From Chiloscyllium plagiosum (lineage: Eukaryota): a DNA stretch of 64,000 nt. The stretch spans positions 13,257,979 through 13,321,978 of the forward strand of contig NC_057753.1 in NCBI RefSeq assembly GCF_004010195.1, read 5' to 3'. The notes below the pieces were generated by a model that worked only from the letters and a program-made list of their open reading frames with translations, did not search any database and was not told the origin of the DNA. How positions within the stretch are numbered: position 1 is the first letter of the stretch; each line of letters opens with the position of its first letter. Below, piece after piece: positions 20,331 through 56,650 of this stretch. The position numbers and the translations under genes are program-made.

Positions 20331-20652
20331 GAGGTCTCTTCTCTGACTTTTCTGTAATTTACGCCAGTTCCTCCCTTTGAGAGAATTTAATTGAGCGAAG
20401 GATCTTCCCCTTGTTTCAAACACTTCTATTATAATTGAAAGTCTCTACCTTTTCAAAAGCTGATATATTATGCTTCAAATCAGTAAGAAAATACTCTGCA
20501 GGTATCACTCACCAATCACTCGTTTCCATTAAGAACTTCTGAACTCCCCAAACTGAAACTTCACCCTCTCCCTGTCTCATCTCATTCTGTTTCCACCCAA
20601 CTCCAAAGCACCACTTTTAGGATCAACAGAGTTGTCAAGTTCTGGAACGTTC

Positions 20653-20787
20653 TGATTCCTGATGAAGGGCTCCTGCCTGAAACATTGATTTTCCTGCTCC
20701 TCAGATGCTGCCCGACCTGCTGTGCTTTTCCAGCACCACTCTAATCTTGACTCTGATCTCCAGCATCCGCAGTCCTCACTTTTGCCT
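20653..20787 (+). mobile_element. 135-bp PLE-derived mini-element with a hammerhead motif and 16-bp TSD
   Basis: Direct repeat aagttctggaacgttc at 20637-20652 and 20788-20803; CTGATGA at 20659-20665 and GAAA at 20679-20682. Confidence 0.85.
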
Positions 20788-22474: not shown

Positions 22475-22679
22475 GTGTGGAGTGTGGTGCTAGAAAAGCA
22501 CAACAGGTCATGCAGCATCTGTGGAGCGGGAGAATCAACGTTTTCAGTGTAAGCCCTTAATCAGGAAGGGCTTATGCCTGAAATGTCGATTCTCCTGCTC
22601 CTCAGATGCTGCCTGAGCTGCTGTGCTTTTCCAGCACCACACTCTCGACTCAGATCTCCAGCAGTCCTTACTTTTTCCT
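22475..22679. mobile_element. Inverted (fold-back) pair of PLE terminal sequences with degenerate hammerhead motifs
   Basis: About 22478-22560 is the reverse complement of about 22565-22645. Confidence 0.8.
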
Positions 22680-23570: not shown

Positions 23571-23668
23571 AAACACAGAAATTGCTGGAAAAGCTCAGCA
23601 GGTCTGGTATTATCTATGGAGAGAAATCAGAGTAAACATTTCAGGTTAAGTTACCCTTCTTCAGGACT
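23570..23668 (-). mobile_element. PLE terminal fragment with a decayed hammerhead motif
   Basis: Same family as 18334-18426 and 26370-26600. Confidence 0.65.
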
Positions 23669-26364: not shown

Positions 26365-26595
26365 ATAAAAACTGAAAGAACTGTGGAAGCTGTAAATCAG
26401 AAACAAAAGAAAACGAAGTTGTTGGTAAAGCTCAGTAGGTCTGGCAGCGTCTGTGCAGAGAAATCAGAGTTAATGTTTCGGCTCTGGCGACCCTTGCTCA
26501 GTTGAGGAAGGGTCACCGGACCCGAATCGTTAACTCTGACCTCTCTGCACAACTGCTGCCAGACCCTGCTGAGCTTTTCCAGCAACTTCTGTTTG
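26365..26595. mobile_element. Fold-back PLE terminal pair with hammerhead motifs at the centre
   Basis: Inverted arms meet at about 26500; the plus arm reads tTGAGGA-A-GGGTC-accg-GACCC-GAAt-CGTT-AAC. Confidence 0.8.
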
Positions 26596-27745: not shown

Positions 27746-28073
27746 AAAAATAAAAAAAAACTGCAGCTTTTTAAAAAATTGATTCAGTGGATATGGGCCA
27801 GCATTTATTGCCCATCCCCAAATGACCTCAATAAAGTGGCAGTGAGCTGTTACCTTGAGCTGTTGTTTCTTTTACTTTAATTTTATCCTGTGGACTTGCT
27901 GTTTGATCTGACAGCTTTGGTTTTGGTTTTGATGTTGCTTCACGTCCAATGAAGCAGTTGATAGTTCCGTCTAGTATATCGATTTGGGCAAAGCTTTTCC
28001 ACGCCTATAGCTGGGTGGATGCTGAGCTTTGTTGGAGGTTGGAATCTCTCCACGCTCCAGGCTCACTGCCTTT

Positions 28074-28109
28074 ATTCCTGATGAAGGGCTTTTGCCCGAA
28101 ACGTCAAAT
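28074..28109 (+). ncRNA. Minimal type I hammerhead ribozyme motif within a PLE fragment (about 28040-28170)
   Basis: attc-CTGATGA-A-GGGC-TTTT-GCCC-GAAA-CGTC-aaat; the core is intact and stem I has a mismatch. Confidence 0.7.
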
Positions 28110-28309
28110 TTGAAGCTCCTTGGATGCTGCCTGAACTCCTGTGCTCTTCCAGCACCACTGATCCAGAAACTGGTCATGAGTCTAATGAGTCACGATGGAG
28201 TATGGGATTCCAATGGGCACAACAATCCGACTTAGCCAAATTGTCTTGAGCCGTGATTGTACAGTGTTTTGGGAGTGGAGAAATTGGTAAGGAAACAAAA
28301 ACAGAAACT

Positions 28310-32249: not shown

Positions 32250-33930
32250 GGTATTCCTGGATGTTAATAACAGCAGAATTGAAGCCCTGTAGACATTTAT
32301 GACTTTCCTGATATGTTAGCTGATTAAATTACTGAGTAAATCCATTCCCACACAGGTGAATGGTTTCTGTCCAATGTAAATACTTTGCCTGCAGTGAGGA
32401 TGGAAGACTGAGTGAATGCTTTTCCACACAAAGTCCTCCAAGGGGGATACACAACAATGCAGAGTGGCCAAGCAGAGGCTGATAGCCAAGTTCGGTACCC
32501 ATGAGGACGGCCTCAACCAGGACCTTGGGTTAATGTCACACAATAGGTGGCCCCACTACATTGTACACACACACACACATGTACACAGTCTTACATTCTC
32601 ACACAATCAGACAGACCGTCTCCCATACACACAGTCCGCACTCACACCCACGCCCACATCCTCTCTCAGGCATATACTCCATCACACTCAGGCACAAACT
32701 CTATCAAGCACACACACACATAGTTACACACTCTCACTGTGTCCGCGCGCACACATATAAGTCTAAGGGGTGAATTTGCATTTGCAGAATTCTGTTTGCA
32801 GATACGTTCTATTTTGTTCAAAAAGCACACAATCTGTAGGCAGTCAATACATGTGACATTTATAAATTCCTACTTTGGAAATAGAACCAGTCTGACTCAA
32901 GATTGGAATACAGACAGACTAACTTCACAACTTTAATGCATTCTCGGAGCTAGATGTCACTTTTTAAAAATAAACGCTGAAGTAGTCTCAAGAATGCAAC
33001 TTGAAAGATCATATTAATGTTTACATATTAATGAATTGAAACTTGCAACCCATTCTAAATGATGAAAGACTTAATAACAATCTAGTTTTAAATCAACTAG
33101 GCGAAAGTGAGGACTGCAGATGCTGGAGATCAGAGTCTAGATCAGAGTGGGCCTGAAAAAGCACAGCAGATCAGGCAGCATCCGATGAGCAGGAAAATCC
33201 TGAGCTGGCAATTTGGAACTGGGGTAAGGTGGGGGGAGGGGAAATGAGGAAACAGGTGAAGTCCATATTGATGCTCTGGGGTTGAAGTGTTCCGAGGCGG
33301 AAGATGAGGCGTTCTTCCTCCAGATGTCGGCTGGTGAGGGAGTGGCCGGGAGGAGGCCCAGGACTGCATGTCCTCAGCAGAGGGGGAGGGGGGGTTGAAA
33401 TGTTGATTGGTGCGGGTATCCCAGAGATGTTCCCTAAAGCTTCTATTTCTAAATAAACCTGGTGGACTAAAACCTGGTGTTATAAGATTTTTAACTTTTC
33501 CACACAAAGTGCAGGTGAATGGTCTATCCCTTGTGTGATGTCGCTGATGTCTCAGCACGGTGGATGAACTGCTGAATCTCTTCCCACATTTGGAGCACAT
33601 GAGTGGCCTCTCCCCAGTGTGAACTGACCGATGTATTGCAAGGGCAGGTGACTTTGTGAACCCCTGAGCTGGATTCACCCTGAGGTGGATCGTTTCTCCT
33701 GAGTGTAACTGTATTGATGGATTTCCAGTTCAGATATGCAATTGATTTCTTCATCGCAGTCCTCACATTTGCATGGTTTCTCTCCTGTGTGGCTGTGTTG
33801 ATAGATTTCTGACAGTGATGGATAATTAAATCCTTTACCACAAGCCCCACAATAGGCATAATTTCTGCAAGTTACAGGTGACCTTGTATCTCTCTAGGTT
33901 GAACAATCAATTAAAGTTTCTACCACATAT
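32250..33930 (-). pseudogene. C2H2 ZNF pseudogene split by a PLE insertion
   Basis: Fingers at 33495-33860 ([33 protein letters not shown]) resume at 32250-32434. Confidence 0.85.
32435..33494 (+). mobile_element. Penelope-like insertion with 16-bp TSD, containing a second PLE fragment (-, about 33100-33440)
   Basis: cttttccacacaaagt at 32419-32434 and 33495-33510; begins with the PLE C-terminal peptide QRLIAKFGTHEDGLNQD. Confidence 0.85.
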
Positions 33931-44754: not shown

Positions 44755-44825
44755 AGAGAAATGTCGATTCTCCTGCTCCTCGGATGCTGCCTGACCTGCT
44801 GTGCTTTTCCAGCACCACTCTAATC
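44755..44825 (+). mobile_element. PLE terminal fragment starting within the hammerhead (GAAAtGTC)
   Basis: Matches 20679-20745. Confidence 0.75.
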
Positions 44826-50719: not shown

Positions 50720-51476
50720 GTTAGAACGCCGCCCACCCCACTCCTGGCACCTTTCGGTGCCATTGTAGGAAGTGCAAAACCTGCGTCCACACCACTCCCC
50801 TCACCTCCGTCCAAGGCTCCAAGGGATCCTTCCACATCCGTCAGAAATTTACCTGTACTTCTACTGATGTCGTCATCTGCATCCGTTTTATCCGACGTGG
50901 TCCCCTCTACTTTAGAGGAGACAGGATGCCTTCTTGCGGATCGTTTCAGAGAACATCTGATATACCCACACCCACCAACCGCACCACCCTGTGGCTGAAC
51001 ACTTCAACTCCCCCTCCCACTCCGTCAAGGGCATGCAGGTCCTGGGACGCCTCCATTGGCAAACTGTTACCACCTGACGTCTGGAGGAAGAAAGCCTCAT
51101 TCCCCCTTGGGATCCTGCAACCACACAGAATAAATGTGGATTTCGACAGCTTCCTCATTTCCTCTCCCCCCACATTCTCCCAATCCTAAGCCTCCAACTC
51201 TGCACTGCCCTCCTGACTGGTCCATCACAACCCCCTCTGACCTATCATCTTCTCCCTTACCTTCATCCACCTCTCACTTTTTCAGCTACCTTTACCCCAA
51301 CCACACCCCCTCCCTTTTATGTCTCAGACCCCAGCCCACAAGCCTCCTTCCTGATGAAGGGCTTATGCCCAAAACGTCGATTCTCCTGCTCCTTGGATGC
51401 TGCCTGACCTGCTGTGCTTTCACAGCAACAAACTCTCGACTCTGATGTCCAGCAACTACAGTCCTCACTTTCTCCC
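50720..51476 (+). mobile_element. Penelope-like element 3' part (GIY-YIG remnant plus terminal hammerhead motif)
   Basis: Decayed KGSFHIRQKFTCTSTDVVICI…ETGCLLADRFREH; CTGATGA-A-GGGC-TTAT-GCCC-aAAA-CGTC from 51351. Confidence 0.85.
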
Positions 51477-53142: not shown

Positions 53143-54283
53143 CAGAAGAAAACACATTGATATCATATCACTCACAAACATAGCAAAGCACTTCACTGGA
53201 CAGTCTGGGGGAGGGATTGTATTACAGGAACAAAACTCCACTCTGCAACTTATCTTTATCTAACTAATACAAAATATTCTAAACTTTTGACACATTTGTC
53301 AAATCTACCCTCAACCTCAGTATCTCCAACCGAACGTTGCAATTAAAATTTCTCTTCCTTCTGATCGAGTTGTGAATTTACATTCTGCTCTGATTTTGGA
53401 AAATCCTTTCACAGGGCAAATTCCAACCTAGAGAAATGTCAGTCGCTGAATTTTAATTTAGACAGACACTGATGGTTTTCGTAATCTCGTTTTACAGAGA
53501 CATGAAGACTTTTGACAATCGGACTTTTTCTCTTTGCACAATTCTTGTACTGTTTTTCCAGCTACAACATCCAACAGGAGAATTAAAATTTGAAAACAAA
53601 GAAATTGTTTCAGAAATGAGTATTGTTGAACATCCATCTAGAATTTACAGCTTTTTGTGCTATGCTGTTGTTTCATCTCTCTGGGTCTGCTGTGAGACTT
53701 TTAGAGTGGTTCTGAATCCATGTCCTTTGCTTTGTTTCACCCCCATTGACCCAACTTGCTCTTAGTAGAACATAGAACAGTGCAGCACAGTACAGGCCCT
53801 TCGGTCCTTGATCTTGTGCCGATCTTTTACCCTACTCTAAGATCAGACTAGCTGGCATACCTTTCATTTTACTATCTTCCATATGCCTATCCAAGAGTCA
53901 CTTAAATGTCACTAATGTATCTGACACTACTACCACTGCTGGCAGTGCATTCCATGCACCCACCACTCTCTGTGTAAAGAACCTACCTCTGCCATCTCCA
54001 CTAAACCTTCCTCCAATCCCCTTAAAATTATGCCCCCTCATGATAGACATTTCCACCGTGGGAAAAAGTCACTGGCAATTCACTCTATCTATGCCTCTCA
54101 TCATCTTGTTCACCTCTGTCAAGTGACCTCTCATCCTTCTTCGCTCCAATGATAAAAGCCCGAGATCCCTCAATCTTTCTTCAGAAGACGCCCTCCAGTC
54201 CAGGAAACATCCTGGTAAATCTCTTCTGCACCCCCTCTAACACTTCCACGTCTTTCCTATAATGAGGCAACCAGAACTTAACA

Positions 54284-54372
54284 GGCCTGAAGAAGGGCCT
54301 GTGCCCGAAACGTCGAATCTCCTGTTCCCTGGATGCTGCCTGACCTGCTGTGCTGTTCCAGCAATAAAGTTT
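54284..54372 (+). mobile_element. 89-bp hammerhead mini-element with a 16-bp flanking direct repeat
   Basis: caaccagaacttaaca at 54268-54283 and 54373-54388; CTGAAGA-A-GGGC-CTGT-GCCC-GAAA-CGTC from 54287. Confidence 0.9.
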
Positions 54373-54690
54373 CAACCAGAACTTAACACAATATTCCAAG
54401 TGTGGTCTAACCAAGGCTCTATAAAGCTGCAGCATAACCTCCTGGCTCTTAAACTCAATCTCCCTGCTAATGAAAGCTAACACACCACACACCTTCTTAA
54501 CAAACCTATCATGTTGATGGCAACTTTGAGGGATCTATGGACACAGACTCAAGATCCCTCTCTTCCTCCACACTGCCAATAATTCTGCTTTTAACCTGTA
54601 TTCTGCATTCAAATTCGACCTTCCAAAGTGAATCACTTCACACTTTTCCAGGTTGAACTCCATCTGCCACTTATTAGTCCAGTTTTGCGT

Positions 54691-54988
54691 CCTGTCAATC
54701 TACTATTGCAACCTACCAACAGCCCTGCAACTCATCTACTATTGCAACCTACCAACAGCCCTGCAACTCCTCCAACCTTTGTGTCATTGGCAAACTTACT
54801 AACCCACCCTTCCACTGCCTCATCCAAGTCATTTAGTAAAGCACAAACAGCAGAGCTCCTGTCAATCTACTATTGCAACCTACCAACAGCCCTGCAACTC
54901 CACCAACCTTTGTGTCATTGGCAAACTTACTAACCCACCCTTCCACTGCCTCATCCAAGTCATTTAGTAAAGCACAAACAGCAGAGCT
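54691..54988. repeat. Nested tandem duplications (131 bp twice, with an extra 36-bp duplication in copy 1)
   Basis: 54691-54857 versus 54858-54988. Confidence 0.9.
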
Positions 54989-55550
54989 ACCAGAACCAAT
55001 CCCTGCAGAACACCACTGATCACCATCTCCAGGCTGAATACTTTGCATCTACCACCACCCTCTATCTTCTATGGGCAAGCCAATTCTATATCCGGACAGC
55101 CAGACCTCCCTGTATCCCATGCCTCCTTACTTTCTGAATGAGCCAACTATGGTGAACCTTATTAAATGCATGCTAAAATCCATGTACACCATATTCACTG
55201 CTCTACCTTCATCAATGTGTTTTATCACATCCTCAAATAATTCAACAAGGTTTAGTGAGGGATGACCTGCCCCTCACAAAGCCATGTTGACTATGTCTAA
55301 TCAAACTATGGTTTTCCAAGTAATCATAAATCCTGTCTCTCAGAATCCTCTCCAACATTTTGCCCACTACAGACATAAGACTGAGTGATCTGTAATTCCC
55401 AGGATTATTCCTATTCCCTTTCTTGGACAAGAGAATAACATTTGCCAGCCTGCAATTATCTGGCACTACTCTAGTGGACAGTGAGTACGCAAAGATCATC
55501 ACCAAAGATGCAGCAATCTCTTCCATCACTTCCTGTATTAGCCTAGGGTA

Positions 55551-56650
55551 TTCACAAAGTCATTCATAAAATCAGGAAGTATGGGATACAGGGAGATTTG
55601 GCTATCTGGATTCAAAATTGCTGGCTGACAGAAGGTAGACAGTGGTTGTAGATGGAAAGTATTCTGCCTGGAGGACAGTGTTGAATGGGGTCCTGCAGGG
55701 CTCTGTTCTTGGGCCTCTGTTCTTTGTAGTTTTTATAAATGACTTGTATGAGGAGGTTGAGGGGTGGGTTAGTAAGTTTGCGGATGACACAATGGTTGGA
55801 GGTGTCGTCAATAGTATAGAGGGCTACTGCAAGCTGCAGCGCGACATAGACAGGATGCAGAGCTGGGCTGAGAAATGGCAGATGGAGTTCAACCTGGATA
55901 AATGCAAAGTGATGCATTTTGGAAGGTTGAACTCGAATGCTGAATATAGGATTAAAGACAGGATTCTTGGCAGTGTGGAGGAACAAAGGGATCTGAGTGT
56001 GCAGGTACATTGATCCTTCAAAGTTGCCACCCAAGTGGATAGGGTTGTTAAGAAAGCATATGGTGTTTTGGCTTTCATTAACAGGGGGATCGAGTTTAAG
56101 AGCCGCGAGGTTTTGCTGCAGCTCTACATGTCCCTGGTGAGACCACACTTGGAATATTGTGTCCAGTTCTGGTTGCCCTACTATAGGAAAGATACAGAGG
56201 CTTTGGAGAGGGTGCAAAGAAGGTTTACCAGGATGCTGCCTGGACTGGAGGGCTTGCCTTATGAAGAAAGGTTGAATAAGCTTGGACTTTTCTCTTTGGA
56301 GAGAAGGAGGAAGAGAGGAGATCTGATCGAGATGTACAAAATAATGAGAGGAATAGATAGTCAATAGCCAGAGACTTTTCCCCAGGGCAGGATTGACTGG
56401 TACGAGAATTCATAGTTTGAAGATATTAGGAGGAAGGAATAATGGAGGTGTCAGGTGGAATGCGTTGCCAGCTGTGGTGATGGGAGCAGAGTCATTGGGG
56501 ACATTTAAGCGACTGCTGGACACGCACATGGATAGCAGTGAGTTGAGGGGTGCGTAGGTTAAGTTACTATATTTTACACTAGGATTAAATCTCGGCACAA
56601 CATCATGGGCCAAAGGTTCAGTTCTGTGCTGTACTTTTCTATGTTCTATA
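55551..56650 (+). mobile_element. 5'-truncated CR1 nested in opposite orientation
   Basis: GVLQGSVLGP…FADDT…LVRPHLEYCVQFW; tail (ttctatg)n. Confidence 0.9.

Follow-up and report, generated by a model that had tools for sequence, protein, structure and literature searches.

One minus-strand LINE in the 64,000-nucleotide stretch of shark DNA that we analyzed (the window) is interrupted by 89 bp holding little more than a hammerhead ribozyme motif. The locus raises the questions of whether so short a sequence is a separate retrozyme-like element, as the initial annotation proposed, or the remnant of a longer one, and of what set its ends.

Insertion Site

By inspection of the sequence, the insert occupies positions 54284-54372 between exact 16-nt repeats on the plus strand, a left copy (54268..54283) that is host LINE sequence and a right copy (54373..54388) that repeats it exactly. 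The minus-strand frame of the LINE reads ...EYCVKFWL, is broken by the insert, resumes as ...KFWLPHYRKDV, and continues past it. We examined 14 non-self loci among the matches listed (at least 40) for a search with the left flank, all of them paralogous rather than orthologous LINE copies, and all 14 carry the 16-mer once, lack the insert, and run straight into the right flank. Because of these empty sites we regard the 89 bp as a true insertion with a target site duplication (TSD), in agreement with the original description. The suspicion that the first bases of the repeat might belong to the element was also correct. The first 4 nt of the right copy are at the same time the element's own 3' end sequence, and because of this ambiguity the TSD is 12-16 nt long.

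The host LINE (53766..55551, minus strand) is ∼76-87% identical to its paralogues, and we take it to be CR1-like by its protein motifs. A Pfam scan of a 49-residue piece of the LINE gave no match. The frame contains several further stops and, because it was already broken and diverged, no intact gene is interrupted by the insert. The part of the LINE downstream of the insert, at window positions 54698-54989, contains two duplications, a 36-nt tandem one and a longer internal one.

Identity of the Insert

Comparison with its genomic relatives indicates that the insert is very probably a truncated, young Penelope-like element (PLE) of Neptune-like type, reduced to an end piece that has no tail. 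We number the element from the first hammerhead core base (54287, +1), which places the predicted cut after +28. On this scale the PLE end piece runs from −1 to +90 (54286..54376, plus strand), where it stops at the proximal, tailless 3' site; positions 54373-54376 are common to it and the right repeat. All 91 of its 91 nt are identical to a longer copy, L004.

The family is abundant. Counted as exact-match patterns in the 3.56-Gb genome, a 54-nt core occurs 11,081 times (reversed control, 0) and a 23-mer at the element 3' end 23,095 times. Corresponding counts are 7,835 for the core plus four stem I bases, 2,325 for an upstream 72-mer (−85..−14), 172 for the junction beyond the tail, and 39 for a 43-mer within the start of the ORF. 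Upstream, longer copies continue across a 3' UTR to a C-terminal GIY-YIG region (Pfam PF01541, E 4e-5 and 1e-4), ahead of which L107, L108, L133, L167, and L169 have a CX4CX2C linker. A CX2-5CxxC linker between RT and EN is a mark of the Neptune and Nematis PLEs (PMC8557442). An RT fragment at one family locus matches RVT_1 (E 5.8e-10). On the downstream side, rare copies pass the tail and continue into a long ORF; their cores are 100% identical to that of the present copy, and the first ATG of this ORF is downstream of the hammerhead. No full-length master, a single copy with everything, was seen in the assembly, which has gaps.

The core is thus joined to the GIY-YIG region upstream and to the ORF's beginning downstream, which does not support a separate retrozyme-like element and favors the alternative that the initial annotation had kept in reserve, an extremely 5'-truncated PLE. 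Its reading of the insert as non-coding and made by PLE machinery is upheld. So is its view that the element is young, as the first 65 nt of this copy recur unchanged in 40 of 61 sampled arms.

A second young subfamily (L119, L124, L130, L134, L197, L229, and L108) differs by a few linked substitutions; it has the two 3' ends and the 5' edge of the main subfamily and occurs in short, long, and ORF-linked forms. In L220, L222, L236, L239, and L243 the N-terminal part of the PLE ORF contains an Ala/Thr-rich stretch and a tandem 13-residue Pro-rich repeat, and the ORF sequence breaks off beside this part. A 223-residue open frame downstream of the match at L195 may be a retroviral envelope fragment, which it resembles. 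The 0.9-1 kb common to the upstream sides of L049, L071, and L083 was rejected as part of the element, being duplicated host sequence. The window also holds at least eight further stubs of older related PLE families, one of them two-armed, at 20652-20782 (with its own flanking repeat), 22488-22663, 23581-23666, 26554-26585, 28062-28154, 33099-33194, 44758-44814, and 51344-51475.

Hammerhead Motif and 5' Junction

The sequence, its predicted folds, the family alignment, and a published description (PMC4209133) together identify a minimal type I hammerhead motif at 54287..54318 on the plus strand. The conserved core (54287-54293) is followed by an unpaired A, a 4-bp stem II (54295-54298/54303-54306), GAAA (54307-54310), and a palindromic helix III. 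The predicted cut falls after 54314, and the 3' strand of stem I occupies 54315-54318. The closing helix I of 4-5 bp is found in intact copies such as L004; in this copy one of the four bases of the stem I 5' strand remains, so the earlier remark that stem I is mostly lost was accurate. An intact copy is predicted to fold into the hammerhead outline, stem I plus stem II, and the junction of this copy into a hairpin that sequesters stem II (−15.2 kcal/mol). The fold of the whole 121 nt is unremarkable (z −0.98). Because three of the four stem I bases are gone and there is no neighboring ribozyme with which to form a dimer, this copy is predicted to be an inactive ribozyme.

At the family level, a hand-picked alignment of 14 members has invariant core bases and stem II paired in 98% of cells; covariation in these copies does not rise above shuffles, 139 of 500 of which reach the score. 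Rfam searches found no match in the whole window at the gathering score and no hammerhead model among the 5 matches up to E 10 for an intact copy. The ribozyme call rests on the motif and the published description of minimal hammerheads.

The core begins 3 nt inside the insert, with its three CpGs unmutated, as had been noted. Of the three bases ahead of it, only 54286 is element-sense. The other two (54284..54285, plus strand) are extra G's that belong neither to the target nor, in this sense, to the element. Preceded by the final 3 nt of the left repeat and followed by the next two bases, they give a stretch that agrees over 7 nt with the stem II region in reverse complement, and the identical junction sequence is found in a two-armed copy, L014. 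The junction is thus likely to record a two-armed or fold-back event of which the second arm is nearly gone, the alternative being untemplated addition. Near the other end, the AATAAA to which the initial annotation drew attention is present at 54363-54368. It reads as internal body sequence and not as a tail signal: no poly(A) tail follows it in the family copies displayed, and related families lack the AATAAA.

Two 3' Ends and Paired Arms

The ends of family copies were sampled from the first 100 exact matches of a 3' anchor, which correspond to 100 arms of 74 insertions in the first 14.3 Mb of contig C1. Two positions ∼36 nt apart dominate the 3' ends, with 37 arms at +88..+92 and 47 at +125..+128; the remaining 16 end near these clusters, or run on by chance or into other sequence. 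These two 3' ends are the known "tail" of PLEs. A second, inverted arm is carried by 27 of the 74 insertions, and in all 27 a short end is paired with a tailed end, an outcome with a probability of 3e-9 under independent choice. Across all loci examined, 60 of 64 closely joined pairs are short plus tailed; of the four exceptions, three belong to loci selected because they contain ORF chimeras.

Thirty two-armed insertions have TSDs of 10-15 nt (minimal) or 11-17 nt (maximal, with bases common to the element ends), a range that includes the 12-16 nt of the present copy; only 20 of 47 single-armed insertions have a TSD of at least 10 nt. The target nicks have no ATT preference (13/60 against a background of 0.23), and for this reason cutting by the endonuclease at the element's own ATT was rejected. 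In the 30 two-armed insertions G is weakly enriched (about 0.4-0.57) 2-4 nt outside each TSD end, symmetrically on both strands, possibly as an endonuclease preference. One two-armed hairpin with the junction −149/−76 recurs at L007, L017, L075, L165, and L166, with a common AT-rich flank behind the short arm in the first three; this insertion was apparently re-mobilized or duplicated with host DNA.

A Sharp 5' Edge at the Front of Stem I

In the same 100 arms, the 5' end lies within −7..+3 in 56, within +5..+60 in 30, and further upstream in 14, three of which pass −550. The stop rate per nucleotide is 0.0055 before the 10-nt zone, 0.126 inside it, and 0.0037 after it, so that 56 stops were seen where ∼4 were expected. 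Single-armed insertions behave likewise, 25 of 47 stopping in the zone. At the cut site (+27..+29) a single arm ends, and 70 of 100 reach +3 or further upstream. 5' truncation is therefore not random, and its boundary is the front of stem I rather than the cut site; since 30 arms stop short and 14 pass the edge, ordinary truncation and longer templates also occur. The initial annotation held that ends scattered at random along a longer PLE, with no pile-up at the ribozyme, would indicate ordinary truncation. The ends are not random and the pile-up is strong, but it lies at the stem I front edge, ∼32 nt upstream of the cut site. Four 5' ends group at +25, too few for a call.

The modal 5' end is −4, taken by 41 of 155 arms, in a set that was in part selected because its arms reach this position. 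It is the first base of the stem I 5' strand and also the A of TCATTC, which resembles the initiator consensus; the match sits in pyrimidine-rich sequence, and four of its bases double as stem I. The same edge recurs in chimeras. At loci selected because they contain ORF sequence, ORF fragments are joined head-on to the hammerhead; of 39 such joins 23 lie within −7..+3, eight of them at −4, and 8 of 12 cores that continue into the ORF begin at −5..−2. The last untemplated base before the edge is G in 9 of 12 ORF joins and 3 of 7 single-armed copies (12 of 19 together, p 0.001-0.007). This is a post hoc count on 19 junctions in which the bias is not confined to −4 and some bases perhaps come from inverted fragments; in two-armed copies such a G is indistinguishable from templated sequence. 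In full-length L1 copies an extra G is a sign of cap copying (PMC11702581).

Template and Mechanism

The family identity, the TSD with its empty sites, the two fixed 3' ends, and the 5' pile-up can be read from the sequence itself. To account for them we favor, at a probability of roughly two in three, a reading in which the RT starts inside an uncleaved RNA and runs off its 5' end, which would likely be a transcription start. The element RT would prime at an endonuclease nick in the old LINE, the staggered nicks lying 12-16 nt apart, with up to 4 nt of target-template pairing. Synthesis would begin ∼90 nt downstream of the hammerhead core inside uncleaved element RNA, presumably the element's own mRNA by way of its 5' copy of the start sites. 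The RT would then run off the RNA 5' end as in the synthesis of retroviral strong-stop cDNA, that end being a likely transcription start at the front of stem I. The 5' end would be joined via a short fold-back or a second-arm remnant, and the resulting copy would be an end product, predicted not to move again. The initiator-like motif at the edge fits this reading. ORF-to-hammerhead joins at the edge would be expected if an RT that runs off a 5' end jumps to another RNA, and the extra-G bias fits, because cap copying would add a G.

Drosophila Penelope has an internal promoter in its pLTR (PMC2377424). Transcription there begins 46 nt ahead of an intron whose end is at helix I (PMC2377424, PMC4209133), and because that start is not at the helix itself, it counts against the run-off account. 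A more detailed version, which we put forward tentatively and at somewhat below even odds, is that the thousands of stubs are fossilized strong-stop cDNAs of a capped mRNA whose start would be an initiator located at stem I's first base. A protein dimer would start one cDNA per internal site, one on each nicked strand; the two cDNAs, about 95 and 130 nt long, would both end by run-off at the cap; and longer copies and pLTRs would arise only when the RT jumped to other RNA or copied a tandem transcript. In that case the role of the hammerhead would be to mark the RNA 5' end and not to cut the RNA.

It is rather unlikely, in our judgment, that the insert is a PLE stub whose 5' pile-up reflects a stall, self-priming, or processing hotspot at the hammerhead front on a longer RNA. 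Many two-armed junctions do use microhomology, 1-3 nt long, that short repeats around the core provide, and self-priming has been proposed for PLE palindromes (PMC3846280). Moreover, the RNA start was not observed: 718 reads from one poly(A) single-cell run contain no site where many molecules start or stop. These reads largely mirror the genome, since 94% continue into unlike sequence, as expected of copies inside host transcripts, and their depth and loose ends follow the genomic stubs within such transcripts. A second sequencing run gave 0 reads, and two further sets consist of contigs, which are unable to show ends. Against a stall, an RT at −4 would already have copied the stem I 3' strand and stem II, so that no hammerhead helix should be left to block it. 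The pile-up recurs at this edge in single-armed copies and in ORF joins, the extra G's fit run-off, and the nicks of this family have no ATT preference.

A separate non-autonomous mini-element, retrozyme- or SINE-like, with transcribed masters of ∼95-130 nt mobilized in trans by PLE proteins, is improbable. It would explain a nearly fixed short form at very high copy number, and non-LTR retrozymes are said to derive from pLTRs and to be present in one chondrichthyan (bioRxiv 10.64898/2026.07.22.740005). Several loci also hold a 224-nt unit in tandem, every repeat of which has a hammerhead. However, two same-strand cores within 700 nt were found in 0 of 74 sampled insertions and the ends lie off the cleavage site, which tells against the retrozyme-like structure originally proposed. 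Furthermore, both subfamilies comprise short, long, and ORF-linked forms with an identical core, and the 3' ends are the internal start sites of a PLE. By analogy, the stubs may also be poor templates, as they lack the RNA downstream of the start sites that the anole protein needs (PMC11167929). No joint or circle junction was listed for the 718 reads or for the two contig sets, a weak test given that a poly(A) library is unsuited to small circles. Finally, a reading in which hammerhead self-cleavage fixes the ends and linear or circular monomers serve as templates is very improbable and is refuted for the bulk of sampled copies: the invariant core and paired stem II speak for it, but it predicts 5' ends at +29, where almost no arm ends and which 70 of 100 cross, covariation does not exceed shuffles, and ribozyme mutants of the anole element left insertion in vitro unchanged (PMC11167929).

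Comparison with Known Systems

The element is of a known kind and not a new ribozyme replicon. The closest known system is that of the 5'-truncated EN+ PLEs of the Neptune and Nematis groups (Craig et al. 2021, PMC8557442; Arkhipova et al. 2013, PMC3846280). Common to both are strong 5' truncation, an adjacent inverted copy, partial tandems, a TSD, a 30-40 bp tail at only one end, and, in longer copies, GIY-YIG with CX2-5CxxC. Unlike in the available portions of those accounts, a sharp 5' boundary at the hammerhead front is counted here, and the present copy is single-armed and tailless. A literature search, made outside Repbase, subscription papers, and the supplements of the 2026 preprint, any of which may describe the family, found no paper on a 5' boundary at the hammerhead front and nothing joining Penelope with strong-stop and hammerhead.

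In 2014 minimal hammerheads were reported from pLTRs; most were solo motifs, attributed to truncated PLEs (PMC4209133). The shark motif resembles them in its short helix I, the unpaired base before stem II, the palindromic helix III, and its occurrence mostly as solo motifs with opposite-strand pairs 100-700 bp apart; it differs in that stem II is 4 bp and, in this copy, the stem I 5' strand is lost. Sharks are not named in the accessible part of that paper, and the accessible part of PMC6155905 contains nothing on shark elements.

In vitro work on PAc, a Poseidon element of the green anole, showed that the tail is defined by two internal sites at which RT starts on uncleaved RNA (Frangieh et al. 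2024, PMC11167929). Two start sites downstream of the hammerhead and an uncleaved RNA template are likenesses to the shark family, and further listed likenesses are that both strands are nicked and extended and that the protein is predicted to be dimeric. Unlike PAc, the shark family belongs to another clade, has its hammerhead and the two sites lying upstream of the ORF's first ATG, lacks an ATT nick preference, and would pair target with template over as many as 4 nt when priming.

Non-LTR retrozymes (Cervera and de la Pena 2020, PMC7229834; Li et al. 2026, bioRxiv 10.64898/2026.07.22.740005) are similarly non-coding, with a type I hammerhead, a derivation from or relation to pLTRs, and long TSDs. 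They consist of head-to-tail repeats with a ribozyme per unit and are processed to circular monomers. The window insert, unlike these, is one piece shorter than a unit whose ends do not lie at the cut site, in a family with no tandem same-strand cores among the 74 sampled insertions and 1 of 100 arms ending at +27..+29. The 224-nt head-to-tail unit, comprising the pLTR from −18, the hammerhead, the tail, and ∼75 nt of the ORF side, is found at L079/L191 (C1, about 26.52 Mb), L044 (C1, about 16.16 Mb), L240 (C19), and C8 (about 24.158 Mb), with L044 and L079 99% identical over 227 nt. As judged by its sequence, it is this tandem derivative, and not the window insert, that fits the published definition of a non-LTR retrozyme. 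Hammerhead counts in such genomes would be made up mostly of dead stubs, not retrozymes. Set beside these systems, the stub family is a large natural record of the PLE reaction, and its pairing of one short with one tailed end, its sharp 5' edge, and its ORF-to-hammerhead joins yield precise predictions about that reaction.
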